DNA from: an uncultured Bacteroidales bacterium
GTDB lineage: Bacteria; Bacteroidota; Bacteroidia; Bacteroidales; Bacteroidaceae
Length of the DNA stretch: 64,000 nucleotides
NCBI GenBank assembly: GCA_902776455.1
Contig: CACYQI010000026.1
Location: 5,686-69,685, forward strand
Direction of reading: 5' to 3'
In this document: piece by piece, positions 9,086 through 59,576 of the stretch
Numbering within the stretch: the first letter of the stretch is position 1
Layout: each line of letters begins with the position of its first letter
Made by a program: the position numbers and the translations under genes
The notes under the pieces: generated by a model
The model's input: the letters and a program-made list of their open reading frames with translations, nothing else
Database searches by the model: none
Told to the model about the DNA's origin: nothing

Positions 9086-9180
9086 TTTAACGTATAAAGT
9101 TGACTGACTTAACGTATAAAGTTGACTGACTTAACGTGTAGAGTTGACTGACTTAACGTGTAGAGTTGACTGACTTAACG
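9086..9180. repeat. tandem array of about 4 units of a 22-nt repeat (C family, cttaacgtRtaRagttgactga)
   Basis: Four near-identical 22-mers directly abut the A array. Confidence 0.9.
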
Positions 9181-9318
9181 TGTGAGTCCGCTTGAAAAAG
9201 TCCTGTAAGGACTAAAAGCTCTTAGCCCAGGGCATCGCCCTGGGTAGTAATCAAGCGGTTGTGTTTCGCTCTGTAAGAGCAAAAGCAGACATCTGAACTT
9301 TTCAAGTGGACTCACGTG
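9178..9318. repeat. 141-nt multi-stem element (S element): outer stem gtgagtccgcttgaaaaag/cttttcaagtggactcac enclosing three inner hairpins
   Basis: Inner hairpins are agtcc-tgtaa-ggact, cccagggc-atc-gccctggg and gctctta...taagagc. A second copy lies at 57854-57993. Confidence 0.75.
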
Positions 9319-9366
9319 AAGTTGGATGATGCCGGAAGGAAACTGTGCCTTCTCCCAAAAAGAATC

Positions 9367-9479
9367 GCCACAATCTGCCACAATCTGCCACATTTTCCCC
9401 AATCTGCCACAAATCTGCAACACGCATATCCGTTTGTACTTCAGCGCGATATAGCCCCTCTGTGGCAGATTGGCAGATT
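9367..9479. repeat. decamer-word hairpin (D family, aatctgccac words vs gtggcagatt)
   Basis: Left arm gccacaatctgccacaatctgccac...aatctgccacaaatctgc, right arm ctgtggcagattggcagatt. Confidence 0.8.
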
Positions 9480-9531
9480 TTCTCAGAAAAAAACCTTGTG
9501 TACGCGCGTGCGCGTAACATTATTATATCTA

Positions 9532-10200
9532 CCTCCTTTGACTCCTTGGCTCCTTAGAGTTTTTTTTCTACGGAGCACATGGAGTACATGGAGAAGGCCC
9601 CGCTTCCCTCCTTTTACTCCTTGGCTCCTTAAAGTTTTTGATGCCTAAGGAGTATAGGAGTACAGGAGTTTTAGACGCTGGGAGGGGGCTTCACTTCTCC
9701 GGAGTTTTGGAGGCTGGGAGGGGGCTTCGCTTCTCCTTTGACTCCTTGACTCCTTAGAGTTGTTTTCTACGGAGCACATGGAGTACATGGAGAAGGCCCT
9801 GCTTCCCTCCTTTGCCTCCTTGGCTCCTTAAAGTTTTGATGTCTAAGGAGTATAGGAGTATAGGAGTTTTGGAGGCGGGAAGGGGGCTTCACTTCTCCTT
9901 TGACTCCTTGACTCCTTAGAGTTGTTTTCTACGGAGCACATGGAGTACATGGAAAAGGCCCTGCTTCCCTCCTTTGACTCCTTGGCTCCTTAAAGTTTTG
10001 ATGTCTAAGGAGTATAGGAGTATAGGAGTATAGGAGTTTTGGAGGCGGGGAGGGGGCTTCGCTTCTCCTTTGACTCCTTGACTCCGTAGAGTTTTTTAAT
10101 GTCTAAGGAGTATAGGAGTAAAGGAGTTTTGGAGGCTGGGAGGGGGCTTCACTTCTCCTTTGACTCCTTGACTCCTTAGATATGGAGCACATGGAGAAGC
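9532..10200. repeat. higher-order tandem repeats (about 160-200-bp units, 3-4 copies) built from octamer words (ctccttga, ggagtata, ggagcacatggagtacatgg, ggaggctgggagggggcttc)
   Basis: The anchor ctacggagcacatggagtacatgg recurs at 9568, 9767 and 9929. Confidence 0.85.
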
Positions 10201-10205
10201 ATCCG

Positions 10206-10318
10206 GTTCTGGCGGATTTGAAATCCGACAGAATTGAGAATAAGCATTTGCAATGCTATAAGCTGTGGGGATTACAAATCCCTAACTCAAAACGGCCGGA
10301 TTGCAAATCCGTCCGAAC
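10206..10318. mobile_element. MITE-like four-hairpin element (F family), copy 1
   Basis: Ends gttctggcggatttgaaatccg... and ...cggattgcaaatccgtccgaac are inverted repeats. Internal hairpins are cggatttgaaatccg, gcatttgcaatgc, ggattacaaatcc and cggattgcaaatccg. Confidence 0.7.
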
Positions 10319-10473
10319 AGCGAAGGGGCAGCGCCAAAGGAGCACTCACTCCCCCTAAATGGGGGCGGGGGTCTTGGAGGCTGGGAGGGGGCTTTTCCTC
10401 TCTGGTAGAGGCTGAGAGGGGGCTTCCAGATAAAAAAAATCACACAATTCTTTGAAGGTATTGAAATTCTTAG

Positions 10474-10481
10474 TAATTTTG
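10474..10481 (+). promoter_or_regulatory. -7 box TAATTTTG for the LRR gene
   Basis: The box ends 37 nt upstream of ATG 10518. The paralogue at 56741 has TACTTTTG at the same distance. Confidence 0.65.
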
Positions 10482-10885
10482 TGCTGGAAACAAGTAATTA
10501 CCAACAACACAAAAGATATGAAACGGGAACTTTTACTTCTTCTCGTGGCTCTGCTGCCAATGGTAGCAAGTTCCTACGATGTCCAGATTGATGGCATCTA
10601 TTATGACTTCTCGGGAGACAATGCAACGGTGACTTATCAGAAATATCAAAATGATTATTATGTATCTGATTATTCTGGTGAAGTAGTTATTCCAGAATCT
10701 GTTACTTACGGTGGAAAGACTTACAGCGTGACCAGCATCGGCTACAGGGCCTTCTATGGTTGCAGCGGACTGACCTCCGTCACCATCCCCAACAGCGTGA
10801 CCAGCATCGGCGAGGAGGCCTTCCGAGGTTGCACCAGCCTGACATCCGTCACCATCCCGAACAGCGTGACAAGCATCGGCAACTA

Positions 10886-10984
10886 TGCCTTTGATTGTTG
10901 CACCAGCCTGACTTCCATCACCATCGGGAACAGCGTGACCAGCATCGGCTACAGAGCCTTCTCTGGTTGCACCAGCCTGACCTC
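10886..10984. repeat. 99-nt perfect direct repeat, copy 1 (LRR module)
   Basis: Reads identically to 11231-11329 by eye, offset 345 nt (five 23-aa LRR units). Confidence 0.85.
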
Positions 10985-11230
10985 CGTCACCATCCCAAAC
11001 AGCATGACAAGTATCGGAAGCCAAGCTTTCTATGGAACAGGATGGTATAAAGCCCAGCCAAACGGAATCCTCTATTTAGATAACTGGCTTATAGGTTATA
11101 AAGAAACTAAGCCGACAGGAAATGTAGCTATCAATAGTGGAACAAGAGGAATAGCAAACGCTGCCTTCAAAGATTGCAGCGGCCTGACCTCCGTCACCAT
11201 CCCCAACAGCGTGACCAGCATCGGCGAAAG

Positions 11231-11329
11231 TGCCTTTGATTGTTGCACCAGCCTGACTTCCATCACCATCGGGAACAGCGTGACCAGCATCGGCTACAGA
11301 GCCTTCTCTGGTTGCACCAGCCTGACCTC
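11231..11329. repeat. 99-nt perfect direct repeat, copy 2; the frameshift lies exactly at its 3' edge
   Basis: Same string as 10886-10984. The next base diverges (catcccg vs ccgtcacc). Confidence 0.85.
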
Positions 11330-13538
11330 ATCCCGAACAGCGTGACCAGCATCGGCAGCTGTGCCTTTCTAGATTGCAAAGGACTGACCTCCGTCACCAT
11401 TCCCAATAGCGTAACAAGCATCGGCGGCGGTGCCTTCTCTTATTGCACCAGCCTGACCTCCATGACTATCCCCAACAGCGTAACCAGCATTGGCGGGGAG
11501 GCCTTCCGAGGTTGCACCAGCCTGACCTCCGTCACCATCCCGAACAGCGTGACCAGCATCGGCAGCTGTGCCTTCCAAGGTTGCAGCAGCCTTACCTCCA
11601 TCACCATCCCGAACAGCGTGACAAGCATCCGTGACTTTGCCTTCTCATATTGCAGCAGCCTGACCTCTATCACCATCCCCAACAGCGTGACCAGCATCGG
11701 CAGTTGTGCCTTCTATGATTGCAGCGGTCTGACCTCCGTCACCATCCCCAACAGCGTGACAAGCATCGGCAACTATGCCTTCGATGGTTGCAGCAGCCTA
11801 AAAAAAACTATTTGGCTCACTAATACACCCCCTTCTGGTTACACTAATGTAAAGGGAACCATTAATTATGTATCAAACGAACAGTATTCTGGCCTCTCAA
11901 ACACAATTATCTATCCTTTCTTGAGTTCAATGTTCGAAGTTAATGGTGTTTGCTACGTACCTGTAAATCCCTCTGAACGTACTTGCGATCCCATTGATTG
12001 TAGGCATAATGAGACGGCTGCCCACCTGAATATTGCTTCTACTGTATCCTATAAAGGAATAACCATGCATGTAAACAAAGTGCAACCCTATTTCTGTTAT
12101 AAAAATCCATTTGTACAAACTTTGAATTGCGACTATGAAGGCGAAATATGCAATTATGCGTTTAGTGGTTGTACAAATTTATATAGTCTGACATTAGGCA
12201 AGAAAGTATCGTCGATTGGTGTTTGTTCCTTCCAAGGTTGTTCATCCTTGGCCTCTGTCACCATCCCAGATTCGGTTAGTACATTAGGAAACTATGCTTT
12301 CTCTGGCTGTTCTTCACTTGCCAGCGTTAGACTGGGAAATAACATCAAGTCATTAGGAAGTTATGTGTTCCAAAATTGTGGGATTCCTGCTATCAGCATT
12401 CCTGCATCCGTCAACTCCATCAATAATTATGCTTTTTCGGGATGTACGAAACTAAAAACTATTATCATTGCTAATCGCGATAACGAATTGTCGTTGGGCA
12501 GCAATGACAGTTCGCCCTTATTTTCAGACTGCCCTCTCGACTCTGTGTATATTGGCGGGAACATCAATTACAACACCTCTTCGAGCTATGGTTACTCCCC
12601 ATTCTACCGCAACACATCACTGCGCATGGTAGTTATTGCAGACAAAGAAACAGAGGTTTCTCCGAATGAGTTCTATGGTTGCACCAACTTGCAGAACTTC
12701 ACAATTGGCGATGGCGTCACATCATTCGGCAACTGGGCTTTCTCAGGTTGCACAAGCTTGAAGCGTCTTTCTTTCGGCTCTCATTTGGCTTCAATCGGTA
12801 AAGAGGCATTCTCAGATTGCTCATCTGTAATCGAGATAGTAAGTAAGGCGGTGACTCCTCCTTCTTGCGGAACACAGGCGCTGGATGACATCAACAAATG
12901 GGAATGTACGCTTACTGTCCCCAAAGGAAGTCTGGCTTCTTATCAGCAGGCAGAGCAATGGAAAGAATTCTTCTTTATCAATGAAGGCAATGGAGAAGAA
13001 CCGCCTGTCATCCCTGACCCCGAGAAGTGTGCAACGCCTACCATCAGCTATGTTAATGGCAAGTTGGTATTCGACAGCGAGACAGAGGATGTCGTTTTCC
13101 ATTCCTCGATTACTGATACTGACATCGCTTCGTATCTCAACAAAGAGATTTCCCTCTCCGCTACCTACACTATCACTGTCTATGCCACAAAGGCTGGCTA
13201 TGAGAACAGCAACGTAGCAACGGCCACCCTCTGTTGGATTGACGCAGAGCCGAGGTCGGAAGGTCTGGAAGAGGATGCTGTGACTGAAATAAAGGCTCTG
13301 CCCGTCCTCATTCAGGCACAAGCTGGCTTCATCAACGTTCAAGGCTTGGAGGCAGGCACAGAAGTCTCGGCCTACAACACCAGCGGCATGCTCTTAGACA
13401 CTATCGTCAGCGGTCAGGACACAGCAACGCTCCGCACCAAGATCCCCGCAGGTTCCACAGCTATCGTGAAGATAGGCCAGAGGGCTATAAAGGTCATGGT
13501 TAAGTGAATCCTTACACGTTAACTTACAAAACATCGCT

Positions 13539-16588: not shown

Positions 16589-17962
16589 TTATTGTACCGT
16601 AAGTTTTCCTGTGACGCGGAGGTATTCTGTCTCGTAGATACGCTGTTGTGTCTGTGCTTCGATGAGGTTGCTGTGAGCCTGTTGCCACTGGCTTTGGGCA
16701 TCCAGGAGGTCGGTCATCGTCGCCATCTGCGTGTCGTAGCGCAGACGCATCATGCGGAGGTTCTCGTCGGCCTGCTGTTGGCTGAGCGTTGCAGTCCTGA
16801 CCATTTGCTCGCTGTCAGTAAGGTTCTGTACGGCTTGGCGTACCTCAACATGCATGCCTCGCTCGCCCTGTTGCAGTTGCAGGCGGGCGTTCTCCACGTC
16901 TATCTTGGCCTTCTTTACCTTCTTCAGCTCTGCCCCCCAGTGGAACAGCGGTACGCTGACGTTCAGCATGGCTATTGGATTGAAGTCGCTGAAGGTGTGG
17001 CTGATGGTTATGGGCATGCCGTCGAGGTTGCGGATGGCACCCTTCAGCTTGAGGTTGTCGTAGTAGCTCAAGCGGCCCACGATAGCTACGGTGGGAAGGT
17101 AATTGGCGCGGGTGGCCTTGAGGGCAGCCTGCTTGGCCTTCACCTGCCAGTTGAGGAGCTGGAGGTCGGGGCGGGAGGAGAAGTCTTCATCGAGTTGCGT
17201 TGACAACGCAACATACGGGACGGAAGAGAGCGAAGCAGACGATGAGGGGAGCGAAGCAGTAGGGGCGGAGGGCTGCGGCGCAGAGGGGAGGGTGTCGGTG
17301 GGGGTGATGGAAGCTTCGAAGTCTGTGCCGATGATGTTGGCAAGAGCTAGTTGGCAGAGCTGTTCGCCGTTGCGGGCTTTCTGGAGCTGATAGGCGATTT
17401 CGCTCTGCTTGGCTGTGATGCGAAGCAGGTCGTTGTTGGTTGCCAGCTCGGCATTGACGCTGAGTTGCACCTTGTCGTAGAGGCTTTGTATCTGACGGGC
17501 GTAGGCTTCCAGCATCTGCACCTTGGAGCGGACGGCAACAAGCTGGTAGTAAGCATGGTCAACGCTGGCGATGAGCTGCATCTCCGTCTTGCGGCGTTGC
17601 TCTTCGCTCACCTTCTCTCCGATGGCTGCCAAGCGGTTGGCTGCCGTTATCCTGCCGCCGACGTAGAGCGGCTCGGTGATGTTGAGGCCCGCCATGTAAG
17701 TGCCACGAGCCTGGAGGGACATGCCGATGATGTCCTGGTCCTTCATCAAAATGGTCGTGAACGAACCGTCGATCTTCGGCAGATACTGCGCGAAGGCTAT
17801 CTTGCGGTCAAGCTCAGCCTGCCGGACAGCGTTGTCGGCCATCTGCATCTGCTCGTTGTACTGGAGAGCGAGGCGGCGGCATTCGGCGAGGGAGCGAGGC
17901 TGGGCAAGGAGTTGCGTTGACAACGCAACAGACAGGACGAGGGCTGTTATGTTCTTTTTCAT
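16589..17962 (-). CDS. TolC-family outer-membrane efflux protein (third gene of RND operon 1)
   Basis: The true start is MKKNITALVLSVALSTQLLAQ at 17962, with an ATGA overlap with the RND stop. The longer track ORF (to 18592) overlaps the pump gene. Confidence 0.8.
   Translation of the reverse strand: MKKNITALVLSVALSTQLLAQPRSLAECRRLALQYNEQMQMADNAVRQAELDRKIAFAQYLPKIDGSFTTILMKDQDIIGMSLQARGTYMAGLNITEPLYVGGRITAANRLAAIGEKVSEEQRRKTEMQLIASVDHAYYQLVAVRSKVQMLEAYARQIQSLYDKVQLSVNAELATNNDLLRITAKQSEIAYQLQKARNGEQLCQLALANIIGTDFEASITPTDTLPSAPQPSAPTASLPSSSASLSSVPYVALSTQLDEDFSSRPDLQLLNWQVKAKQAALKATRANYLPTVAIVGRLSYYDNLKLKGAIRNLDGMPITISHTFSDFNPIAMLNVSVPLFHWGAELKKVKKAKIDVENARLQLQQGERGMHVEVRQAVQNLTDSEQMVRTATLSQQQADENLRMMRLRYDTQMATMTDLLDAQSQWQQAHSNLIEAQTQQRIYETEYLRVTGKLTVQ
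17194..17212. repeat. 19-nt palindrome gttgcgttg-a-caacgcaac (I family) inside TolC
   Basis: Encodes VALSTQL. It is part of a 33-nt match to the 48-bp intergenic units at 38622-38765. Confidence 0.9.
17911..17929. repeat. second identical 19-nt palindrome inside the TolC signal-peptide region
   Basis: Same 19-mer and same frame, again encoding VALSTQL. Confidence 0.9.
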
Positions 17963-20900
17963 GCGGCTTTCGGTTTTTGGATGTGGAAGATTGTGGTGTA
18001 GAGGATAGGCAGGAAGACGAGGGTAATGATGGTGCCCATAGCGAGGCCCGACATGATGCTGACCGCCATAGAGCCGTACATCGGGTCGCCCATTAGCGGA
18101 GCCATACCGAGGATGGTGGTCAGCGAGGCCATCACCACAGGGCTGGTGCGGCTGACCGTCGCGTTCACCACGGCATGATAGGGGTGTTGCTTCTCCTCGC
18201 GCCTTAAGCGGTTGATTTCGTCCACCAGCACGATGCCGTTCTTTGTCATCATGCCCACGAGGCCCATCACGCCGAGGATGGCGATGAAGGTGAAGGGCAT
18301 GTCGATGAGCAGAAGCACGGGAACGATGCCGCAGACGATGAAGGGCAGGCAGCAGACGATGAGGAGAACCTGCTTCCAGCTGTTGAACAGGAGGAGCATA
18401 ATGACGAGGATGAAGAAGAAGGCCACGGGGAAGAGCTTGAGCAGAGATGTTGCTGCTTCGCCGGAGCTGCCGCCTTCGCCCTGCCAGCCTACAGAGTATC
18501 CTGGTGGCAGAGGTATGGCCGCAATCTTTTCGCGGATGTCTTTCTCCACGTTGCCGGGTGTTGCATTCTCGTTCAGCGGGTCGGGGTCGCATTCGGCCTC
18601 AATGGTGCGCTGACCGTTCTTGCGTATCACAAGTCCTTCTTCCCAAGCCATTTGCATCTTGTTTGCCACAGCGGTGAGCGGCAGGCTGCTGAGCATCTTG
18701 TTCTCCATGTCGTCGATGCTGGTGGTGCCGCTTAGGAGTCCCTTCACGTCGTCGTTGTCGATGTTGAGGTTGAAGTCGCTCCAGACGGGGATGTGCGGCA
18801 AGTCCATGATGGCCGAGCCGTCCTCGTTGCGAACCTGCATCTGCACGATGACCGTCTTGTCCTGGTCGGAGATGACGCCCACGGGCAGTCCGTCGGTGGA
18901 TGCCAGAAGCGCATTTGCCACGTTGCCTCGGTTCAGGCCGCGGCGGACGGCATCGCTCTGGACGTAGTCAGCCACGATGGTCATTCCCTTCGGATGCCAG
19001 TTGTTCTGCACGGAGTACTTGTCCACATACTTGCAGTCGCGCATGATGTCCTCGGCTTGCTTGGCAAGTTGTCGGAGCACCATGGGGTCGGGGCCTTGAA
19101 ATTCCACCTCGACGGTATGGGTGGTGCTGATGCTGAAGTTGTAGTTTCGGAAACGGATGTAAGCGTCGGGATACTCGGCGCGAAGCTTTGGACGCAGTTC
19201 GGCGATGGCTGCCTTCATGGTCTTGAAGTCCTTGCAGTCCACGATGAGTTCGCCGTAGTGCTCGCCTCCGCTGTTCATGGGACGCACGAAGCTGTAGCGG
19301 ACAGGCGAGGAACCCATCGCTGCCGTCACGCGGTCAATCTTCTCGTTCTTCAGCAACTCCTCGGAGAGCGCCAGCAGGTCGTTCCTTGTGCGGTCGGGGC
19401 TGCTCTGTGGTGGCAAGTAGTATTCGATGACGAACTGCCCGTAGTCGAAGTCGGGGAAGAACACTCTTCGCAGCTGCGTGAAGCCCCATCCGCACAGGCA
19501 AAGCAGGGCGACGGCGCAGACGATGGTCAGGCGTTTGTAGTCGATGAGCATGGCTATCAAGCCTCGTATGGCTTTCTGCATCTTGTTGTCGCTCACGTCT
19601 TCGCCCGTCTTGTTCTTCATTCTCAGCGGCAACCATGCGGCGACGCAGGCCGGCACCTGTACCATAGCCAGCACCCAGGAAGCCAGCAGCGAGATGCAGA
19701 GCACGAGGAAGAGGTCGCGGCAGTATTCGCCTGCCGTGTTGGGCGAGAGGTAGGTGGGCAGGAACGTCAGCACGGCGATGATGGTGGCGCCCAGCATGGG
19801 CAGCGCCGAGTTGTTGACGATGTTGTAGAGATAGCTTTTGGGCGAGAGTCCTCTCTTGCGGTCGGCCAGGATGCCGTCGAGGATGACGATGGCGTTATCG
19901 ACAAGCATACCCATTGCCACGATGAAGGCGCCGAGGGAGATACGCTGCAGGGTGCTGCCGCAGAGCAGCAGGATGGGGAACGACACGGCGATGGAGAGCA
20001 CGAGGCTGGTGCCGATGATCATGCCGCCCCGGAAGCCGTACATGAACATGAGGACGATGATGACGATGAGCACCGACTCCAGGAGGTTGATCATAAAGCC
20101 GCCGATGGCGGAGTTCACCTGGTCGGGCTGGAAGAATATCTTCTCCGTTGCGAAGCCCACCGGGACGCGTTGCATCACTTCGGCCATCTTGGCATCGACG
20201 GCTTTGCCCACGTCCGGGACGATGACTCCGTCGTTGCACGTCAGGCAGATGCCCAGGGCGGCCTTTCCGTTGACGAAGAATCCGCCCGTCTGCGGCTCCT
20301 TGTAGCTGCGTTCCACGGTGGCGATGTCGCCCAGCCGCATCAGCTTGCCGGTCGTGGTTCGGATGTAGAGGTCGGCGATGTCCTGTTCGTCCTCCAGTTC
20401 ATGGCTGACGCGCATCTCGATGCGGTCCTCGCCGTTGGTGTATTTGCCGCTGTTCACGGTCTTGCCCGCACCTCGCAGGCCGAGCATCACTTGTGTGGGG
20501 ATGATGCCGTTGCGGGCCAGTTTGTCCTTCGAAAGGATGATGTTGATGACCTCCTTCCGCGTGCCGATGATGTTGATGCGCTTCACGCCTTTGACGGTCA
20601 GCAGCTCGCGGCGTATCAGTTTTGCATAGCGTTCCAGCTCTGCATAGCTGTAGCCTTCGCCGGTGAAGGCGTAGAAGAGTCCATAGACGTCCAGCATGTC
20701 GTCGATGACGATGGGCGGGTAGCAGCCCGACGGTAGCTTCATCTGCACGTCGTTTGCCTTGCGGCGAAGCTGGTCGAAGTGCTGTTCCATCTGCGACATC
20801 TTCACCTCGTCGGCAAACTTCACCGTGATGACGGCCATTCCGGACTGGCATTTCGACTCCAGGCTCTTGATGTTGGGCAGCGTGCGCAGCTCGTCCTCCA

Positions 20901-21108
20901 TCACCTGCACGGCTTTCAGCTCCACTTCGTGAGCTGAGGCTCCGGGGTAGATGAGCGCTACTGATGCCTGCTTGATGGCTACGGCGGGGTCTTCCAGCTT
21001 AGGCATGTTCAGGAAGCTGAACACGCCCAGGAAGAGGATGCCCACCACGAAACTCCAGAATATGCTGGGGCGCTTCACGAAAAACTCAGTTAGTCCTCTT
21101 GCATTCAT
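17959..21108 (-). CDS. RND efflux permease (AcrB/HAE1-like)
   Basis: 1049 aa with 12-TM RND architecture, flanked by adaptor and TolC genes. Confidence 0.9.
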   Translation of the reverse strand: MNARGLTEFFVKRPSIFWSFVVGILFLGVFSFLNMPKLEDPAVAIKQASVALIYPGASAHEVELKAVQVMEDELRTLPNIKSLESKCQSGMAVITVKFADEVKMSQMEQHFDQLRRKANDVQMKLPSGCYPPIVIDDMLDVYGLFYAFTGEGYSYAELERYAKLIRRELLTVKGVKRINIIGTRKEVINIILSKDKLARNGIIPTQVMLGLRGAGKTVNSGKYTNGEDRIEMRVSHELEDEQDIADLYIRTTTGKLMRLGDIATVERSYKEPQTGGFFVNGKAALGICLTCNDGVIVPDVGKAVDAKMAEVMQRVPVGFATEKIFFQPDQVNSAIGGFMINLLESVLIVIIVLMFMYGFRGGMIIGTSLVLSIAVSFPILLLCGSTLQRISLGAFIVAMGMLVDNAIVILDGILADRKRGLSPKSYLYNIVNNSALPMLGATIIAVLTFLPTYLSPNTAGEYCRDLFLVLCISLLASWVLAMVQVPACVAAWLPLRMKNKTGEDVSDNKMQKAIRGLIAMLIDYKRLTIVCAVALLCLCGWGFTQLRRVFFPDFDYGQFVIEYYLPPQSSPDRTRNDLLALSEELLKNEKIDRVTAAMGSSPVRYSFVRPMNSGGEHYGELIVDCKDFKTMKAAIAELRPKLRAEYPDAYIRFRNYNFSISTTHTVEVEFQGPDPMVLRQLAKQAEDIMRDCKYVDKYSVQNNWHPKGMTIVADYVQSDAVRRGLNRGNVANALLASTDGLPVGVISDQDKTVIVQMQVRNEDGSAIMDLPHIPVWSDFNLNIDNDDVKGLLSGTTSIDDMENKMLSSLPLTAVANKMQMAWEEGLVIRKNGQRTIEAECDPDPLNENATPGNVEKDIREKIAAIPLPPGYSVGWQGEGGSSGEAATSLLKLFPVAFFFILVIMLLLFNSWKQVLLIVCCLPFIVCGIVPVLLLIDMPFTFIAILGVMGLVGMMTKNGIVLVDEINRLRREEKQHPYHAVVNATVSRTSPVVMASLTTILGMAPLMGDPMYGSMAVSIMSGLAMGTIITLVFLPILYTTIFHIQKPKAA

Positions 21109-21147: not shown

Positions 21148-22206
21148 TCACAAGAGGTCGCCAATGTTGGTCTTCTGCGGTACAACCACCTTCACCTTCT
21201 CGCCGTCGTGGAGCATGCCTACGCCTGCCTTCACCACGCGCTCGCCTTCCGAGAGGCCGGAGGTGACGAAGATTTCGCCTTCGGTGCTTACCGTGCCGGT
21301 GGTGATGGCACGTTGCTTCACCACGTTGTCCTGCCCGACGACCCAGACATAGCTCTTGCCGCCGTCCTCGAAGACAGCATGGGGCGGGATGGTCAGGCCG
21401 TCGCTACGGTCGTCGCCGCTTACTTCGATGAAGACATCGACGCTCTGTCCGGCGCTGAGCACACCGTTCTGCAAGGCGAACTTCAGCGTGAAGAGCTGGT
21501 TGGAGTCGGCTTTGGGGAGCAAGCCCGTCTGCCGAAGCTCGTACTGCTGCCCTTTGTGGATGCAGTAGGCGCGAGTGAAGCTGTCGTGCAGGGCATAGAT
21601 TTCGGCCGGCACGTTAATCTGGACTTCCATGCTCCGGGCGTCGATGATGTCGAACACAGGCAGGCCTGCGCTCACCATCTCTGCGGGTTCGAAGTTCACC
21701 TTCTGTATGGTGCCGTTCACGGGTGCCGTGAGTCGGGTGTAGCTCAACTGGTTCTTGGCGTTCTGCAGCTTGATGCCCAGCTGTTCCAGTCCGCTGGTGG
21801 CTTTCTCGTAGTCGTTGCCGGAGAGGCTGTTGCCTTCGTAGAGCTGACGGAGTCGCTCCACTTCGTTCTTCAGCTGGTTGTACTGCGACTGGGCGGCATC
21901 CACCTGAAGCTGATAGTCTTTGGCGTCGAGCGTAGCCAGCAGCTGACCGCTCTTGACGCGGTCTCCCTCCTTGACCAGGATGCGCTCTATCTGCCCAGGC
22001 GTGCGGAAGCCGAGGCTCACGGTGGCGTGCTCCTTCACGATGCCGGAGAAGTTCTTCCGCATGGTGGCTTGCCTGTTCTTGGGCGTCACGGTGATGACAT
22101 TGTGTACGGTCTCTGCGGCCTTCTCTTCGGTCTTGCTGCCGCAGCTGCTCATCAGGGCTGTACCCAGCAACGCTACAGGCAGAATCAGTTTGGTGATGGT
22201 TCTCAT
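21148..22206 (-). CDS. RND periplasmic adaptor lipoprotein (MFP/HlyD family)
   Basis: Lipobox LMSSC, coiled-coil and barrel-sandwich pattern, first gene of the operon. Confidence 0.85.
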   Translation of the reverse strand: MRTITKLILPVALLGTALMSSCGSKTEEKAAETVHNVITVTPKNRQATMRKNFSGIVKEHATVSLGFRTPGQIERILVKEGDRVKSGQLLATLDAKDYQLQVDAAQSQYNQLKNEVERLRQLYEGNSLSGNDYEKATSGLEQLGIKLQNAKNQLSYTRLTAPVNGTIQKVNFEPAEMVSAGLPVFDIIDARSMEVQINVPAEIYALHDSFTRAYCIHKGQQYELRQTGLLPKADSNQLFTLKFALQNGVLSAGQSVDVFIEVSGDDRSDGLTIPPHAVFEDGGKSYVWVVGQDNVVKQRAITTGTVSTEGEIFVTSGLSEGERVVKAGVGMLHDGEKVKVVVPQKTNIGDLL

Positions 22207-28708: not shown

Positions 28709-29021
28709 AGGAAAAAGGAAAAGGGCGCACTGGTGATGTGATGAAACTCCGAAAAACAGGTTTTGAGGGTTCGCCGCCTTTGTAATCCACCTAACCATAA
28801 ATGGGATGGCACGCCATTGGACAGACGAAACAGTTCTCGGTAATAAAATGTAAATTGATGAGTATCCCGATCTAACCAGTACGCCCTATTTGTGTATGTC
28901 TTGCCAGCTGCAAGGCCATTTAGGTCTTCAATTGTATTGCAAAAATAGTAAGTCTTGTTGTAATATGCAAGTTTTTTAGGCTTTTTCTTCGTCTTCCTTT
29001 GGCATTTTGTTGAAAACTTCC

Positions 29022-31674: not shown

Positions 31675-31744
31675 TTGGGAGAGGCTGCGGGGGGAAGTGT
31701 CGCTGTCGTTCCTCGTCGGCGACCTCTTTGCGGAGTGTTGATTT

Positions 31745-31825
31745 ACACTCCACGTTGCATCGGCTTACACTCCACGTTGCATCGGCTCACGCTCCACGTT
31801 GCATCGGCCGATGCTCCACGTTGTG
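31745..31825. repeat. A-family 22-nt units, reverse orientation (about 3.5 copies of acactccacgttgcatcggctt)
   Basis: Tandem units lying between malQ and mltG. Confidence 0.85.
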
Positions 31826-36621: not shown

Positions 36622-37650
36622 ATGGCAAACGTAAAAGTCGCTATTAACGGTTTCGGCCGTATCGGTCGCCTCGCTTTCCGTCAGATGTTCGAGGCTGAAG
36701 GTTATGAAGTAGTTGCAATCAACGACCTGACCAGCCCCAAGATGCTGGCTCACCTGCTGAAGTACGACACAGCTCAGGGCGGTTTCGCTGGCAAGTTCGG
36801 CGAGAACAAGCACACCGTTGAGGCTACAGACAACTCCATCATTGTCGATGGTAAGGAAATCACTATCTACGCAGTTCCCAACGCTGCTGAGCTCCCCTGG
36901 GGCAAGATTGGCGTGGACGTAGTTCTCGAGTGCACAGGTTTCTACACAAGCAAGGAGAAGGCTTCTGCTCACATCCAGGCTGGTGCCAAGAAAGTTGTCA
37001 TCTCTGCTCCCGCTGGCAATGACCTCCCCACCATCGTTTACAACGTGAACCACAAGACTCTGAAGAAGGAAGACACGGTTATCAGCGCTGCTTCTTGCAC
37101 AACCAACTGTCTCGCTCCCATGACAAAGGCTCTGAACGACTACGCTCCCATCCAGAGCGGTATCATGACAACCGTTCACGCTTACACAGGCGACCAGATG
37201 ATTCTCGACGGTCCTCAGCGCAAGGGCGACCTGCAGCGTGCTCGTGCCGGTGCTGCCAACATCGTGCCCAACAGCACAGGTGCTGCCAAGGCTATCGGTC
37301 TCGTTATTCCTGAACTCAACGGCAAGCTCATCGGCGCCGCTCAGCGCGTTCCTACTTTCACCGGTTCTACTACCATCCTGCACGCTGTTGTCAAGGGTGA
37401 CGTTACCGTAGAAGGCATCAACGCAGCCATGAAGGCAGCAGCCAACGAGAGCTTCGGCTACACCGAGGAGAAGCTCGTCAGCAGCGACATCATCGGCATG
37501 AAGTTTGGCAGCCTCTTCGACGCCAACCAGACCATGGTCAGCAAGATGGAGGACGGCAACAGCCTCGTACAGGTTGTGGCTTGGTACGACAACGAGAACA
37601 GCTACACAAGCCAGATGGTTCGCACCATCAAGTACTTCGCTGAACTCTAA
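36622..37650 (+). CDS. gap: type I glyceraldehyde-3-phosphate dehydrogenase
   Basis: 342 aa. [11 protein letters not shown] motif and SCTTNCLAP catalytic motif. Confidence 0.95.
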
Positions 37651-37843: not shown

Positions 37844-38056
37844 AAAGTCCCGAAGGGACGAGAGACCACAGACGGGGGCGCAAGCCCCCGGTAGTAGTGC
37901 GACAATCAAAGAAGCCCCGACGGGGCGACAGAGACCTAATCATGTTGTTATTAAACACGTTACATGTTCTGTCGCCCTTTCAGGGCTTAGTTTTGTTAAT
38001 TCGCTTGTACCGGGGGTTACACCCCCGTCTGTGGTCTATCGCGCCTCCGGTGCTTA
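37844..38056. repeat. 213-nt mirror-symmetric element made of six local hairpins around a central stem
   Basis: Hairpins at 37847-59, 37873-90 (GCAA loop), 37914-26 | 37974-86, 38011-27, 38041-53. Shared arms are agaccacagacggggg and cccccgtctgtggtct. Confidence 0.8.
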
Positions 38057-38621: not shown

Positions 38622-38765
38622 CCGTCCCATATGTTGCGTTGCCAAAGCAACATCACCAACTCCCTCCAGCCGTCCCGTATGTTGCGTTGCCAACGCAACA
38701 TCACCAACTCCCTCCAGCCGTCCCGTATGTTGCGTTGCCAACGCAACATCACCAACTCCCTCCAG
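38622..38765. repeat. 3 x 48-bp tandem repeat, each unit containing the palindrome tgttgcgttgccaacgcaaca (I family)
   Basis: Units at 38622-69, 38670-717 and 38718-65. The array ends 1 nt before the stop codon of the minus-strand regulator gene. Confidence 0.9.
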
Positions 38766-38766
38766 C

Positions 38767-40401
38767 TTAAACCGTCTCTGTATATTGTTTCTTCGGCACG
38801 TTCAGCAAGTAGCCGCATATCTCCTCGGCACGCTTCACCCTGTTCCAGACGGTTTGTATCTTGGCATCCATCACCTTGGCAATCTGCATCGGCTTCAAGC
38901 CAATCTTCATCAGGCAGATGGTGCGGAGCAGCGGCTCGCGAATCGGCCCATCCATTCGCTCCTGGACAGCCTCGATGAAGCCCGGGTAAAGTGCTGCCGT
39001 AGCCGTCATCAAGTCTTTCCACGAGGAGACTGTCAGGTATGCTTTCCCGGCCGCAATGTTGTGGAAGCGTTCCACCACATCTTCAGCCCTGACCTTCGCT
39101 TCGTTCATAAGGGCCATGCGCGTCAGTTCCTTGTTTATGGCCGCCTTTTGCTCAAGCAATTTCTTCCAGCCGACAATTTCTTCCACAAACTTCTTCCGAC
39201 GGAAGTTGTAGTACGCCACAAAGCATGTAGCAAGGCAAAGCGCTACGAGGCCCGCTATGATGGAGTAGAAGATGAGGTATTTGTCCCGCTGCATGATGGC
39301 CCTCTCTGCTTCCAGGTCCCGATGATAGCGGAACTCGTCCCTGGCTCTCTGTGTCTGCTCGAAAGCACGCTGGGCAATAATTGAGTCGTTGGTCTCGTAG
39401 AGACGTTGTCCCCACAAAGCAGCCTGCCGGAAGTCTCCCTTGCGGAAATAGCACCGCTGAAGGCCTGCTGTAGCCTCGTATCGTCCCGTCGCACTTCGCT
39501 CCTTATTATAATATATAATGTAATGGGCTATTGCCGAGTCTGTCCTCTCCTGGTTCTCATGGTGTCTGGCAAGGCAAAGCTCATAATTACCCGGGCGCTC
39601 GTTTGCCGGCATTTGCGACAGATGCCGGAGCAACGGCCCGACCTTCTCGTAGTGACCATAGTTGGAATATATGGCCAGCATGTACGACATCACGTCCCCA
39701 TACCTCTGCGGGAACTGCTCTTCTCGTATTGCCTTGTAGGCCAAGTCGCAGTAAAGCAGGCAGTGGAGCGTGTCGTTCTGGTGTTCGTAAGCCGAAGCCA
39801 CGTCCATCAGGTAACTCGCCGTGGAGCGGTTCCTCCTTCCTTTGGAATCGACGGAGGAGGCTTTCGCCAGTTCCACAGCCTGCTTTGCCACGTTCAACTC
39901 TTCCTCATAGTTCAGGACAAGCATATAGAGATACCTCAACTGCGAAAGCGCATTCTGCCATATCAGCGTATCGACGTCCCTCCCTTTCTCAGCGACATCA
40001 ACGGCTTTCAAGAAAAGACTTATGGCCCGAGGGTAGTCTTTCAGGTCGCGATAGGCACTGCCCAGATAGTAGAAGGCACGTTCCTTGTCGCAGTCATCCT
40101 CGCGCCCTTCGAAATAGGATACTGCTCGCTTGGCGGAGTCGGGAGAGGATGGTACGACGTCGAACTTGTCGCGCAAACGGATGGTCAACAGATTGTACTT
40201 CTGCCGGACGTGCTCTGTTGACTCCTTCACCGAGTCCTTCATGCCTTCTGTGCGAGCCTTTGCCTCTGACATTGATGTCTCGCAAAGCTGCCATATCTGC
40301 TCAATCTCGTTCAGCAATTGTTGCTCTCCCTTCTCATCCTTGCACGAGAAAAGCAATGCCGACAGGCAGAAGAAGAGGAATGATAGTGTTGTCTTACTCA
40401 T
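38767..40401 (-). CDS. membrane-anchored TPR protein with a C-terminal LuxR/sigma70-region-4-like HTH (DUF6377-like regulator)
   Basis: Lipobox LLFSC, TPR-like repeats, one TM helix (YLIFYSIIAGLVALCLATCFVAYY) and C-terminal LRTICLMKIGLKPMQIAKVMDAKIQTVWNRVKR. Confidence 0.55.
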   Translation of the reverse strand: MSKTTLSFLFFCLSALLFSCKDEKGEQQLLNEIEQIWQLCETSMSEAKARTEGMKDSVKESTEHVRQKYNLLTIRLRDKFDVVPSSPDSAKRAVSYFEGREDDCDKERAFYYLGSAYRDLKDYPRAISLFLKAVDVAEKGRDVDTLIWQNALSQLRYLYMLVLNYEEELNVAKQAVELAKASSVDSKGRRNRSTASYLMDVASAYEHQNDTLHCLLYCDLAYKAIREEQFPQRYGDVMSYMLAIYSNYGHYEKVGPLLRHLSQMPANERPGNYELCLARHHENQERTDSAIAHYIIYYNKERSATGRYEATAGLQRCYFRKGDFRQAALWGQRLYETNDSIIAQRAFEQTQRARDEFRYHRDLEAERAIMQRDKYLIFYSIIAGLVALCLATCFVAYYNFRRKKFVEEIVGWKKLLEQKAAINKELTRMALMNEAKVRAEDVVERFHNIAAGKAYLTVSSWKDLMTATAALYPGFIEAVQERMDGPIREPLLRTICLMKIGLKPMQIAKVMDAKIQTVWNRVKRAEEICGYLLNVPKKQYTETV

Positions 40402-43977: not shown

Positions 43978-46224
43978 CTACCATTTGATGCTGACTTTCA
44001 CGCCTTCGGGCTTGTTCTCGAAGCGGAGGTGCAGCAGGCGGTCCTTGCCGTCCCATTGGGTTTCGTAGGTATCGGCGCCGACGGTGATTTCCTTCGGCTC
44101 GTGGGGCAACAGAATGGCCATCACGTTGTCGGTGTTGGCGGGACTCTTGGCTGTAAAAGCATAGCGATGCTTCTCCACGAGTTCCTCTTCCTGGCGCGAA
44201 GCTGCGGCCAGCACCTGCGGACGCTTGCTGTGCTTCACCTTCCCGAGGTCAATAAGGAAAGTCTGTTCGCCGGGACGAACCATCTTCCCCGGCAGGCAGG
44301 GCAGGGTAGGGTCGAAGAGGTCGAGGAAGCGCCCTTCGAGGATGAGCGGCTCGTTGCTCACGACGCCTTCATCTACGACAGAGGCAATCAGATAATGTCC
44401 TCGCCTGAGCAGGAAGTTGTTCTTCTCTTCGAGCTTGCCGTAGGCGTTGCCAAGCGTCTGCATCAGCCTGCTATCGCCGCCTTCGTTCATGGCGAACTCC
44501 TTCGGGTCTTGCCGTAGAATATAGACGCGCCCCTTGCCGCAGCGATACTCGCCCTCGGCGGCCTTCCTCTCCATGCCCATCAGCTCGAACAGATGCTCCG
44601 AGGGGGCCTTGTAGCCGCTCTCCGTCCACCATTCCTTGATGTTCTGGAAGGCATCGTCGTCGCGACTGCAATAGATGAGCCGTCCTCCTTTCCTGACCCA
44701 TCGGGCAATGTCTTCGTGTGCCTTCGGGTCGAGCGGTTTCATGGCCGAATAGGAGAGGAGCAGCACCTTGAGCCCCGTCCATGTGTCGGCATAGCCTGTG
44801 TTTTCCAAGTGCGTGATACTGACAGGGATGCCTCGCTTCACCAGCGGAAGGGCCAGTCCGTAGAAGTTCGAGAGTTGCGGGTCGTCGTAGCCCTCGACGG
44901 GATGTGGCGAGCGCTGGAACATCAAGGAGTTCGCCATTGCTACGCTGACAGCCCGAGACCCTTCCAAACCTCCCTCCTTTTTAAGGGGCAAGGGGCAGGG
45001 GGCAAGGGGCAGGAGGATTGCTCTGGTAGTTGGTCTTCTCTTGCCCCTTGCCCCTTGCTCCTTGCCCCCTTTTGAGGGAGTAAGAGGGTCAGATGGCATC
45101 TCGTTCAACGCGTTGATCATCACCTGCATCTGCGTGGAATAGAAACGCGGTATGTGGGCACGTTCCTCGCTTCCGGCCGCGACGCGATAGAGACCTTCGT
45201 AGATGCGGTCGGGCCAAGGCATCACCTCGTAGTTGCCGATTTGTGGATAGAGCAACTGAGCCGTGAACGTGGCCTGATAGTTGCGGCGATAGTCCTCCCA
45301 GTCCTTGGCGCGGTCCTCGATGGGGTCGGTCAGGAAGAACATCTTCCGGCCGGTGGGTCGGGTCATCGACTCCATGCATCCGTATTCCAGGAAAGCCGTC
45401 TCGAAGACACGCTCGCGCGCGATACCATTATAATAATTAGGTTCGCGCGACGTGCCCGTCCAGACCTGCGCGATGTAGCCGTCGCAACTCTCCATCGAGG
45501 CAAGCGAGGCTTCGGGCGATACAATCTGCCACTGCGAATAGTTGAGCAGCGAGTGCGTCGGCACGTAGCACTTCACGTCCAGTCCCTTCTCCCGTCCGTA
45601 GGCCTTGGCGTAAGTGAAGGCCTCGTCCAAGGCACGGTAGTAGAGGTGGTACTTCAGCTTGTTCGAGAGGTAGGTGTTCTCGGCCGATTCGTGCTGAGGC
45701 CGCCAAGGGAAGCCGTAATACTCCTGCCACTCGCGCTTGAAGGCCTCGCTATAGCCGGCTCTTGCCCAGAACTCAGGCTCTTCCAGGAAGATAGCTTCGA
45801 TGCCTTGGTCTATGGCGGGACTGATGTGCTTCTCCTTGAAGTAAGCCAGATAGTTGCGCGTCGGGACGATGTAGGGCACGAGGTGTCCGTGCATGATGGT
45901 GTCGCCCCGCTGCGTCTTCTGCCCCTCGTCCATGTGCCAGCGGCCGTCCCACTTTCCGGTGAAGTAGTCCTGATACTGCCCCCAGGCGATGCCCGTCATG
46001 AAGTGCGTCGTGTAGTTGTGTTCGCGCCACGACTGCACGCGCTCGGCAAAGGAATGCCGTCGGTTGTCGTTCACGCCATAGACCATCACGGCATCCGAGC
46101 GGATGTCGGTTGTCGGCTTCCACGGCCCAGCGGTCTGGAACGTTGTCTTCTGTGCGTGGCAGGCTGCTCCGAAAAGGAACAGACAGCAGGCTATAGTGCT
46201 GACTTTCATTGATGTTTGCTTCAT
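43978..46224 (-). CDS. secreted hypothetical protein (possibly glycoside-hydrolase-like) carrying a 120-nt in-frame hairpin repeat
   Basis: The likely start is MKQTSMKVSTIACCLFLFGAACHAQ at 46224, 31 nt after a TATCTTTG box. I do not recognise the family. Confidence 0.45.
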   Translation of the reverse strand: MKQTSMKVSTIACCLFLFGAACHAQKTTFQTAGPWKPTTDIRSDAVMVYGVNDNRRHSFAERVQSWREHNYTTHFMTGIAWGQYQDYFTGKWDGRWHMDEGQKTQRGDTIMHGHLVPYIVPTRNYLAYFKEKHISPAIDQGIEAIFLEEPEFWARAGYSEAFKREWQEYYGFPWRPQHESAENTYLSNKLKYHLYYRALDEAFTYAKAYGREKGLDVKCYVPTHSLLNYSQWQIVSPEASLASMESCDGYIAQVWTGTSREPNYYNGIARERVFETAFLEYGCMESMTRPTGRKMFFLTDPIEDRAKDWEDYRRNYQATFTAQLLYPQIGNYEVMPWPDRIYEGLYRVAAGSEERAHIPRFYSTQMQVMINALNEMPSDPLTPSKGGKEQGARGKRRPTTRAILLPLAPCPLPLKKEGGLEGSRAVSVAMANSLMFQRSPHPVEGYDDPQLSNFYGLALPLVKRGIPVSITHLENTGYADTWTGLKVLLLSYSAMKPLDPKAHEDIARWVRKGGRLIYCSRDDDAFQNIKEWWTESGYKAPSEHLFELMGMERKAAEGEYRCGKGRVYILRQDPKEFAMNEGGDSRLMQTLGNAYGKLEEKNNFLLRRGHYLIASVVDEGVVSNEPLILEGRFLDLFDPTLPCLPGKMVRPGEQTFLIDLGKVKHSKRPQVLAAASRQEEELVEKHRYAFTAKSPANTDNVMAILLPHEPKEITVGADTYETQWDGKDRLLHLRFENKPEGVKVSIKW
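44969..45088. repeat. in-frame heptamer-word hairpin ((aaggggc)n vs (gcccctt)n) with an outer cctccctcc/gagggag stem
   Basis: Arms at 44983-45013 and 45038-45072. Translated on the minus strand as ...PSKGGKEQGARGKRRPTTRAILLPLAPCPLPLKKEGG... Confidence 0.85.
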
Positions 46225-53390: not shown

Positions 53391-53516
53391 ACACTTGCGA
53401 AGTTCGCGTGCTAAGTTTGCAAACTTAACGTGCCAAGTTTGCAAACTTAACGTGCCAACTTTGCTAAGTTAACGTGCTAAGTTTGCGAAGTTGACGTGCG
53501 AAGTTTGAATCTTCAC
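53391..53516. repeat. tandem array of about 5.7 units of a 22-nt repeat (K family, aagtttgcaaacttaacgtgcc)
   Basis: Units at 53391, 53413, 53435, 53457 and 53479. Each contains the 14-nt palindrome aagtttgcaaactt or a variant. Confidence 0.9.
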
Positions 53517-57853: not shown

Positions 57854-57993
57854 CACGTGAGTCCACTTGAAAAGTTCAGATGTCTGCTTTTGCTCTTACA
57901 GAGCGATACATAACTGCTTGATTACTACCCAGGGCGCTGCCCTGGGCTAAGAGCTTTTAGTCCTTACAGGACTTTTTCGAGCAACTTCACACG
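57854..57993. repeat. multi-stem S element, mirror copy
   Basis: Reverse complement of 9178-9318 with substitutions. The cccagggc/gccctggg stem is kept while the loop changes (atc vs gct). Confidence 0.75.
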
Positions 57994-58032
57994 TTAAGTC
58001 AGGCAACTCTACACGTTAAGTCCCCCAACTTC
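57991..58032. repeat. C-family 22-nt units (2 copies), mirror
   Basis: acgttaagtcaggcaactctac acgttaagtcccccaacttc. Confidence 0.7.
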
Positions 58033-58042
58033 ACTCGCTAAA

Positions 58043-58167
58043 ACACTCCACGGAGTATCGGCTAACACTCCACGGAGTATCGGCTAACACTCCACGGAGT
58101 ATCGGCTTACGCTCCACGGAGTATCAGCTTACACTCCACGGAGTATCGGCCTACGCTCCACGTTGTG
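58043..58167. repeat. A-family 22-nt tandem array (about 5.5 units, acactccacggagtatcggcta), mirror
   Basis: Head-to-tail 22-mers in reverse orientation relative to 8880-9085. Confidence 0.9.
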
Positions 58168-58448: not shown

Positions 58449-59576
58449 ATGAGAAGCATGGTTCGTATGTTGGCGCTGGCGTCGCTGGCGGTCGTGGTGG
58501 CAGCTTGCGGCAGCAGTTCGAGCAAGACGAAGAAGGACCAGATCAAGTACGAAATCCGTAAGGTAGAACCCGAAACGAGGGTCTATAACATCTATATTCC
58601 GGCTTCGCTCCACGGACTGAGCGAGGTGGAGGTCTTCCCGCAGGTGTCGGGTATCATCCGCGAGGTGAACTTCAAGGACGGCTTCAAGGTGAAGAAGGGA
58701 CAGCCGCTGTTTGTCATCGACCAGACAGAACACAAGTTGAACGTGCAGAACGCTCAGGCTAACCTTGCGGCTGCGAAGGCTCAGATGGAGACGACCAAGC
58801 TCAAATACGAGTCGAACCAGAAACTTGCCGCGAAGAAGATTGTGAGCGAATACGTGATGTCCACCAGCATGAACGCCTACCATGTGGCCCAAGCCGCTGT
58901 CCAACAGGCTGAAGCTCAGTTGGCAATGGCTCAGACAACGTTAAGCTATTGCACGGTGAGGTCGCCCATCACAGGCATCATCAAGGAGAACGGCTTCAAG
59001 ATAGGCGAAGTAGCCGACCTCTCCGGTTTGCTCTGCACCGTTAGCGACGACAGCGAGATTCAGGCTTGGTTCTCTTATACGGAGAGTCAGTTGCTCGATT
59101 TGCTCGACCAATATGGTCTGAAACCCTCATCGGAAGGCTTGAAGGACATTGACGGAAAGACTGTCAGCGCGAAGCTGCCCCGCCTGAAGTTGCAGCTGAA
59201 GAACGGACAGGAGTATGCGCATGAAGGCGTAGTGACAGAGATGGGCGGCATCGTGGACCGCAAGACGGGTACCGTCATCTGTAAGGCCACCTTCCCCAAC
59301 CCCGACTACGAGTTGCGTTCCGGCCTCTCGGCTACGCTCGTGTTCCCCATTCAGATGAAGGAAGTGTTCCGCGTGCCGAAGACGGCAGCCGTTCACTTGC
59401 AGGACCACCTGATGTTCTATCGTGTAGGCAAGGACGGAACCGTGGAAGGTGTCATCTGCGAGGCAATACCTTCGAACAGCGGACAGAACTATTATGTGAA
59501 GAGTGGCTTGCACAGCGGCGACGAGATTGTCATCAACGGCGTGCAGAACTTGTCTAACGGAGTGAAAGTGAAATAA
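58449..59576 (+). CDS. RND periplasmic adaptor lipoprotein (MFP/HlyD family); start could also be ATG 58416
   Basis: MRSMVRMLALASLAVVVAAC lipoprotein signal and adaptor-type barrel-sandwich/coiled-coil pattern. Confidence 0.8.
   Translation: MRSMVRMLALASLAVVVAACGSSSSKTKKDQIKYEIRKVEPETRVYNIYIPASLHGLSEVEVFPQVSGIIREVNFKDGFKVKKGQPLFVIDQTEHKLNVQNAQANLAAAKAQMETTKLKYESNQKLAAKKIVSEYVMSTSMNAYHVAQAAVQQAEAQLAMAQTTLSYCTVRSPITGIIKENGFKIGEVADLSGLLCTVSDDSEIQAWFSYTESQLLDLLDQYGLKPSSEGLKDIDGKTVSAKLPRLKLQLKNGQEYAHEGVVTEMGGIVDRKTGTVICKATFPNPDYELRSGLSATLVFPIQMKEVFRVPKTAAVHLQDHLMFYRVGKDGTVEGVICEAIPSNSGQNYYVKSGLHSGDEIVINGVQNLSNGVKVK

Follow-up and report, generated by a model that had tools for sequence, protein, structure and literature searches.

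The stretch of DNA analysed here, called the window below, comprises 64,000 nucleotides of a contig from an uncultured Bacteroidales bacterium (GenBank assembly GCA_902776455.1, contig CACYQI010000026.1, positions 5,686 to 69,685). Our subject is a short perfect palindrome that lies twice in frame within a TolC gene of this window, recurs there in a tandem array and belongs to a repeat family found in many other Bacteroidales genomes. The gene for the TolC-family outer-membrane factor (16589..17962, minus strand) was taken from the list of open reading frames (ORFs) and encodes 457 residues starting with MKKNITAL; its homologues match PF02321, and the name TolC is given to some of them. An RND efflux operon ends with this gene, its ATG overlapping the stop codon of the pump gene (ATGA). 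The RND pump gene (17959..21108) and the membrane-fusion gene (21148..22206) were assigned from the ORF list and from Pfam matches on a syntenic locus (L122).

The exact 19-mer GTTGCGTTGACAACGCAAC occurs in the TolC gene at 17194-17212 and 17911-17929, as had been noticed from the letters alone in an earlier, sequence-only reading of this DNA. Both copies lie on the coding (minus) strand in the same frame, 717 nt (239 codons) apart, and both are read as GTT GCG TTG TCA ACG CAA CTC, giving VALSTQL at residues 12-18, in the signal peptide, and at residues 251-257; over 31 nt the two are identical at 29 positions. The copy in the signal peptide, termed the S site (17911..17938, minus strand), consists on the coding strand of the 9-nt flank unit GTCCTGTCT followed by GTTGCGTTG-T-CAACGCAAC. 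It encodes (L)VLSVALSTQ(L), codons 9-18, and its RNA is predicted to fold into a hairpin of 8 bp with a triloop (-9.4 kcal/mol, z = -3.6). The other copy, termed the L site (17194..17221, minus strand), has the flank unit GTCCCGTAT before the same GTTGCGTTG-T-CAACGCAAC core and encodes VPYVALSTQ(L) in the length-variable linker that joins the two structural halves of TolC. The sequence-only reading had this copy followed by a low-complexity stretch; a C-rich tract of that kind (17222..17290, minus strand; peptide LPSAPQPSAPTASLPSSSASLSS), containing a 21-nt imperfect tandem duplication, does adjoin the L-site copy, on its N-terminal side.

With up to two mismatches allowed, GTTGCGTTG-N-CAACGCAAC is present five times in the window, at three sites, and 0.00 matches were expected from 100 shuffles. 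A chance origin of these copies was therefore rejected; an assembly artefact was rejected as well. The flank GTyCyGTnT stands on one side only of the window's copies, with CGTC 6-7 nt before the stem, and Rfam gave no match at the palindromes. Three of the copies form a head-to-tail cluster of 48-bp units (38622..38766, plus strand), the unit being CCGTCCCGTAT + GTTGCGTTG-C-CAACGCAAC + ATCACCAACTCCCTCCAG, with cores at 38633 (one mismatch), 38681 and 38729, the latter two reading GTTGCGTTGCCAACGCAAC. TRF describes the cluster as 3.0 copies of period 48 bp with 97% matches over 38622-38766, in agreement with the array first reported at 38622-38765. The match between the L-site copy and the array also stands, but it extends over 30 nt, in which only the central base differs, and not over the 33 nt that had been claimed.

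The array adjoins the stop codon (38767-38769) of a TPR gene (38767..40401, minus strand) and is situated in the spacer between this gene and the convergent GAPDH gene (36622..37650, plus strand). It is identical in seven other independent metagenome assemblies, which were picked by an identical neighbouring protein, and since it is unchanged in all of them it is not an assembly artefact; variation in copy number was sought in these strains and none was seen (7/7 identical). On either strand the array folds strongly (z = -7.0 and -5.6), and a promoter and terminator scan found neither a terminator nor a terminator-like T-run at it. Being located at the 3' end of a gene, it may also serve as an RNA 3' hairpin. 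An origin of its spacer GGGAGTTGGTG from the RAYT 'RELV' codons (for RAYT see below) or the TolC 'ITPTD' codons was considered and dropped, the matches being too short and of low complexity. The same 1.1-kb spacer also holds an Rfam Acido-Lenti-1 RNA motif (37846-37891, minus strand; 38 bits against a cut-off of 37) and, 120 nt from it, a weaker inverted partner (38010-38054, plus strand).

The repeat family and its candidate partner gene

In a scan of one genome per GTDB species the exact 19-mer was found in at least 118 loci, where our arithmetic leads to an expectation of about nine in 596 Gb. By the record titles of 80 of the 118, nearly all are metagenome-assembled genomes (MAGs) of Prevotellaceae, Muribaculaceae, Bacteroidaceae and other Bacteroidales, and many of the isolate names refer to the rumen or the ruminant gut; the few matches outside the Bacteroidota are consistent with a chance background. 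A single MAG can carry copies on several contigs, as RUG378 does in L007, L031, L040 and L069. About 80% of the flanks, on either side, fit GTnnnGTnT, commonly GTyCyGTnT, by which the palindrome is extended to 37 nt. The full element is thus GTyCyGTnT GTTGCGTTG N CAACGCAAC AnACrGrAC and is made of 9-nt units, a short palindrome able to form a stem-loop, as are repetitive extragenic palindromes (REPs), with a 19-nt core and a 37-nt extended form. Its central base is free and its inner stem co-varies, and stem variants that keep both the complementarity and the flanks occur as GTTGCGATG.CATCGCAAC, GTTGCGAC...GTCGCAAC and GTTGCGGCA.TGCCGCAAC. Across 284 flanks only GT..(.)GT.T is conserved, the base preceding GT being variable. 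In many loci the copies form head-to-tail tandem clusters with varied spacers and a period of 31-66 nt, including arrays of three to seven copies at 3' ends.

Nearly half of the copies (72 of 148, by crude gene calls) lie inside ORFs, and 50 of these 72 are in the VALxTQ frame. The intergenic copies are only mildly depleted between divergent genes, by gene calls that are likewise crude. Besides the RAYT-like gene described below, there are several long genes in which two or three species have the element in the same position, and the groups that share flanking DNA are L021/L033/L117, L015/L050 and L028/L093; judging by its encoded YARIRSILRK motif, the gene of the first group looks like that of an arginyl-tRNA synthetase. 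In the TolC linker (see below) the in-frame repeat stands in an otherwise conserved gene and is absent from some of the orthologues, as is the case for Rickettsia palindromic elements (RPEs). The 19-mer with its typical flank was also present in 18 stretches from 16 IMG/VR contigs (L171-L188), up to three per contig, and these copies are either phage-borne or on host fragments that were classed as viral. A text search of our paper library returned no description of this sequence, nor of REPs in Prevotella or rumen bacteria. The family is therefore apparently undescribed, the kind of element being already known.

About a third of the loci (39 of 118) gave a tblastn match to one conserved gene encoding 355 residues, 33 of them over more than 300 residues. 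Several homologues of this protein bear the JGI label 'REP element-mobilizing transposase RayT', and its residues 85-202 match the NCBIfam model REP_Tyr_transpos (NF047646, 'REP-associated tyrosine transposase', hereafter RAYT) with E = 3.8e-7. The motifs DHLH (100-103, of the HUH type), FARGY (174-178) and YL(E/A)DNP (195-200) are invariant or nearly so in 29 sequences, the HUH motif and the tyrosine motif (Y-x-x-x-N-P) standing in the correct order; the catalytic role is assumed by analogy with the family pattern, as given in PMC6006769. With a structure model of pLDDT 58, the top eight Foldseek matches were all TnpA of ISDra2 or IS608 (E about 1e-3, TM on target 0.45-0.57). For the N-terminal part the best matches were ISDra2, IS608 and IS200 transposases, and for the C-terminal part DprA. 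The C-terminal 130 residues or so (about 225-345) of the protein (gene at 5444-6511 of L003; homologues P0121-P0240) weakly resemble the Rossmann domain of DprA, with a Foldseek probability of 0.99 on this poor model and a profile E of about 0.7.

The palindrome itself recurs at this gene. An internal in-frame copy lies between the HUH and tyrosine motifs in 31 of the 33 near-full-length loci, a fraction that is inflated since the loci were picked for a perfect palindrome. A copy upstream, 25-67 nt before the ATG, is present in 12 of 31 loci, and a copy downstream, within about 25 nt of the stop codon, in 6 of 30 (7-25 nt in five of the six). Homologues picked by protein similarity, which correct the selection bias only in part, gave VAL[STPA]TQ in 114 of 120, at the same place in all 40 whose region was printed. 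Two loci picked in this way differ in their copies: L192 has them at -46, at +420 and at +14 and +78 after the stop codon, and L189 has the internal copy alone, in 21 kb. In the RAYT-like protein the segment encoded by the internal palindrome belongs to a linker that varies in length and is modelled with low confidence, yet the VALxTQ core hardly varies. Quentin et al. 2018 (PMC6006769) describe the presence of REPs within the transposase gene itself as typical of RAYT subclass 2.4, of Cyanobacteria and Bacteroidetes. The arrangement of a REPtron, a RAYT gene flanked by copies, is seen at the RAYT-like gene of related genomes and not in the window. As a separate observation, a copy in L192 (about 9915-9955) comes after a TAnnTTTG promoter box of the Bacteroidetes type and before the RAYT-like gene starts, and L189 has the same box without the element.

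The two sites in TolC orthologues

TolC orthologues were aligned as proteins and as DNA, as the sequence-only reading had suggested, and palindromes were found at both sites. The linker is the sole length-hypervariable region of the alignment. At the L site, a perfect palindrome is present in P0003 (83% identity) and P0009 (73%), variants are present in P0008 (GCTGCGAC-agt-GTCGCAGC) and L157 (58% identity; GTTGCGAC-aca-GTCGCAAC), decayed remnants are seen in P0005, P0007 and P0010, and many other orthologues have no palindrome. The element at this site is thus confined to a sub-clade and its flanks align cleanly, and these alignments show the linker copy to be shared or recurrent among orthologues. 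This contradicts the idea of a recent insertion private to the genome of the window. The neighbouring Ser/Pro/Ala tract (17222-17290) is lineage-specific, and orthologues with an identity of 83% or below lack it. In P0002, which is 98% identical, the tract is 24 nt longer and the extra DNA is bounded by direct repeats of TCTTCCGTCCC, which indicates slippage. Purine-rich tails of the GGAGGGA type come after the palindrome in other loci as well, e.g. L061, L073 and L057.

At the S site the copy adds no length relative to the orthologues, of which those with identities as low as 63% have a hairpin over these codons, kept through compensatory changes. Its forms are GTTGCGTTG-T-CAACGCAAC, GTTGCGTTG-C-CATCGCAAC (one mismatch), GTTGCGATG-T-CATCGCAAC, GTTGCGAC-TGT-GTCGCAAC, GTTGTGAC-CGT-GTCGCAAC and GTTGCGGC-TGT-GTCGCAAC (each with a G-T pair), GTTGCTGT-GTT-ACAGCAAC and GCTGCGAC-GTT-GTCGCAGC. 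In the alignment 95.6% of the cells are paired and four pairs have changed on both sides; pairing falls to 29-70% when the hairpin partner is slid, and the covariation score was reached by none of 500 shuffles, a control that leaves the kinship of the sequences in. More distant orthologues (58-65% identity) have no hairpin at this site. Since orthologues down to 63% identity keep the hairpin by compensatory changes, the signal-peptide copy looks like an old one, maintained or homogenised, rather than a fresh insertion. Furthermore, since the same variants recur elsewhere as repeat subfamilies, we read the variation at this site as behaviour of the repeat family and not as a device specific to TolC. 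The upkeep of the hairpin could be due to constraint on the hairpin, to quasi-palindrome correction or to conversion in which other copies are the donors.

Within one and the same orthologue the S and L sites are often alike, the central base being T at both in the window and C at both in P0003, and P0008 having the same arms at both. Intragenic gene conversion between them, which the sequence-only reading had offered for TolC, is accordingly plausible. In other lineages a second palindrome occupies both sites, as CCCCTCTC-n5-GAGAGGGG in L136 and with the peptide PLPHREGSGEG in P0065. Its peptides are PLSxGEG and PLPHREGSGEG, and its two positions are the linker, as before, and a place just behind the signal peptide (in L136 no more than 90 nt into the gene). 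The presence of different palindromes at both places means that these are two tolerant, recurrent sites, which a second repeat family also uses.

Explanations of the palindrome

Taking this evidence together, we consider it likely that the palindrome is the core of a repeat family of the REP/RAYT type in ruminant-gut Bacteroidales, with in-frame copies similar to those of the RPEs, and the RAYT-like protein of 355 residues is probably its partner. By analogy with REP/RAYT and IS200/IS605 systems, this protein would recognise the hairpin in single-stranded DNA and would cut and join beside it, and such cutting and joining could spread or homogenise the copies. Purifying selection would leave copies where the harm is small, either in intergenic DNA or, in frame, in tolerant segments of proteins. 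In TolC one copy would have become part of the signal peptide and the other part of the variable linker between the repeats, where the adjacent repeat DNA may have been expanded by slippage to give the Ser/Pro/Ala-rich tract. The 48-bp array is this element again, repeated in tandem behind a gene's 3' end. The sequence-only reading had proposed a mobile palindrome in a structural outer-membrane gene and would have been undermined by a 19-mer absent elsewhere in the genome together with a TolC segment conserved in orthologues devoid of palindromic DNA. The 19-mer in fact abounds elsewhere, these sites are palindromic in orthologues too, and a dispersed, REP-like family with in-frame copies stands. 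Its mobility is what we infer by analogy, as we do its proneness to deletion, and the window has no transposase-like gene of its own.

Several observations weigh against this explanation. The copy count in 64 kb is only five, and the RAYT-like gene was not found in the window by tblastn, so that for the source genome the link to such a gene would follow from membership of the family. No insertion or excision polymorphism was seen, the array being identical in the seven assemblies, nor was any excision or deletion variant. The 284 flanks revealed no conserved GTAG or CGTC tag at a fixed offset, and the clusters are head-to-tail, without the inverted-dimer arrangement of REPINs and BIMEs. The protein is below threshold for NF047646 (30 bits against a cut-off of 80) and has no Pfam match at E <= 1, and when PDB sequences were searched, first with the protein alone and also with a profile, no transposase came up and DprA alone was matched, weakly (E about 0.7). 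Confidence in the AlphaFold model is low (pLDDT 58, pTM 0.37) because the alignment behind it is shallow (about 80% identity), and therefore the fold matches are only suggestive. The picking of loci by a perfect palindrome, mentioned above, belongs with these points.

For the signal-peptide copy, and perhaps for the linker copy, it is possible that a cis-acting hairpin of the TolC mRNA or DNA has been selected and that the identity with a repeat is secondary; such a hairpin might, for example, tune translation or early elongation 33 nt past a start codon whose translation is coupled to that of the pump gene. The hairpin stands at the same codons in ten orthologues (63-100% identity), with at least four double-sided changes and tolerated G-U intermediates, and the extent of pairing (95.6% against 29-70% when slid), the result of the 500 shuffles (none reached the score) and the stability of -9.4 kcal/mol all count in favour of this. 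However, the same stem variants with their 9-nt flanks stand at unrelated intergenic sites in other genomes, orthologues at 58-65% identity lack the hairpin, an unrelated palindrome takes its place in L136 and P0065, and the shuffle control leaves the relatedness of the sequences in. In addition, quasi-palindrome template switching, or conversion from other copies, can yield 'compensatory' pairs without selection. We therefore regard selection for a cis-acting hairpin as unlikely. The perfect 9+1+9 dyad, its strict conservation across families and copies such as that of L192, between a promoter-like TAnnTTTG box and a start codon, could instead suggest the duplex operator of a conserved dimeric DNA-binding regulator, the copies being its regulon. 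This is very unlikely, since about half of the copies are in ORFs far from promoters, tandem arrays of three to seven copies lie at 3' ends, the copies concentrate at one gene for an HUH protein, and a free central base with a co-varying inner stem implies constraint on a hairpin and not base-specific contacts with duplex DNA.

It is highly improbable that the event was purely local, a segment of the signal peptide having been duplicated or converted into the linker and the array being a coincidence. The shared central base or arms of the two sites (T/T in the window, C/C in P0003, the GCTGCGAC arms in P0008) would fit such an event, but the array and at least 118 further loci have the same element and flank, and the association with the RAYT-like gene would be unexplained, so that as the sole explanation it is contradicted; conversion between the two sites may nevertheless be superimposed on the repeat family. 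Equally improbable, in our judgement, is a DNA uptake signal or genome-wide 'self' tag of rumen Bacteroidales. An identical core across several families of one habitat and the weak resemblance of the partner's C-terminal domain to DprA, a transformation protein, could be taken to favour it. Known uptake sequences occur about once per kb, whereas there are three sites in the 64 kb of the window and L189 has only the RAYT-internal copy in 21 kb, and the copies, far from being evenly spread, occur in tandem clusters and accumulate at one gene.

A bolder extension of the REP/RAYT explanation, to which we give little credence, is that the element is no passive passenger and that the hairpin, identical over 18 nt, and the RAYT-like protein with its DprA-like domain constitute a system of several rumen Bacteroidales families; in view of the copies in IMG/VR contigs, phages might be its carriers. 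Targeted conversion or re-insertion would keep the hairpins of such a system perfect, essential genes included, and the system would repeatedly rewrite the same tolerant loops of surface proteins; the TolC pair, identical copies 717 nt apart, might then be a substrate for programmed deletion or inversion, i.e. phase variation of the efflux channel.

The window has repeats of other kinds as well. Several pairs of inverted tandem-heptamer arrays, e.g. (CCATTGA)x4.9 facing (AATGGTC)x4.4, form long hairpins in intergenic DNA (2188-2277, 5608-5699, 44983-45068 and 59576-59672), and tandem arrays of 22 bp lie at 8880-9187, 31743-31823, 53407-53507 and 57981-58162. Near the window ends a diverged inverted pair of 76-84% identity (9006-11800 against 58166-55700) comprises repeat-rich DNA and LRR_5/BspA-like genes. 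A Bacteroidales-1 (6S-like) RNA was matched at 28717-28886 (minus strand, 130 bits).

Significance and likeness to known systems

REP/RAYT systems have been studied best in Proteobacteria, and the present family would add a well-defined one from rumen Bacteroidales with a partner protein of unusual length. Its other unusual traits are a core identical across bacterial families, the possible DprA-like domain and the frequency of in-frame copies in housekeeping and envelope genes. The compensatory changes in TolC and the matching variants of its two sites are natural material for the study of how hairpins stay perfect in coding DNA. For annotation there is a warning: where a protein of these proteomes has a Ser/Pro-rich or VALxTQ segment, a repeat can be its origin.

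The closest known system is that of REPs or REPINs with RAYT (TnpA-REP), especially RAYT subclass 2.4 of Quentin et al. 2018 (PMC6006769) and group 4 of Bertels. In both, short hairpin palindromes are dispersed as well as clustered and their stem variants keep complementarity, and a single transposase-like gene of the HUH/tyrosine (Y1) type has copies on its flanks and one that interrupts it in frame. REPs are imperfect palindromes of about 20-40 nt that typically number more than 100 per genome and are mostly intergenic. One of their ends bears a conserved tetranucleotide, GTAG or CGTC, that is left unpaired (Di Nocera et al. 2013, PMC3733652). The present family differs in having no such tag at a fixed position, a core of 9+1+9 nt that is extended by 9-nt repeat units, clusters that are head-to-tail and not inverted dimers, and the same core in several bacterial families. 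The partner has 355 residues, its DHLH, FARGY and YLEDNP motifs match none of the subclass lines legible in the table of PMC6006769, and it appears from the model to have an extra C-terminal domain of about 140 residues resembling DprA.

REPs, the RPEs included, also occur within ORFs, sometimes twice per ORF, and the RPEs have been classed as REPs of the CGTC type (Di Nocera et al. 2013, PMC3733652). The family described here is similar to the RPEs in that palindromic repeats lie in frame at tolerant sites of ordinary protein genes, in some cases two per ORF, where a short piece of peptide is added or replaced and the gene survives. The RPEs are reported to terminate in CGTC and to lack a dedicated transposase (PMC3733652) and belong to obligate intracellular alpha-proteobacteria, whereas the present element is shorter, has a candidate RAYT-like partner and is hosted by free-living gut anaerobes. 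A likeness to the IS200/IS605 family (IS608, ISDra2) is suggested by the modelled fold of the partner protein, for which TnpA of these insertion sequences gave the best matches, and TnpA recognises a DNA hairpin in single-stranded form. Unlike IS200/IS605, however, the present system has no TnpB and no left and right ends that bound the gene, and its hairpins are dispersed on their own, as REPs are.

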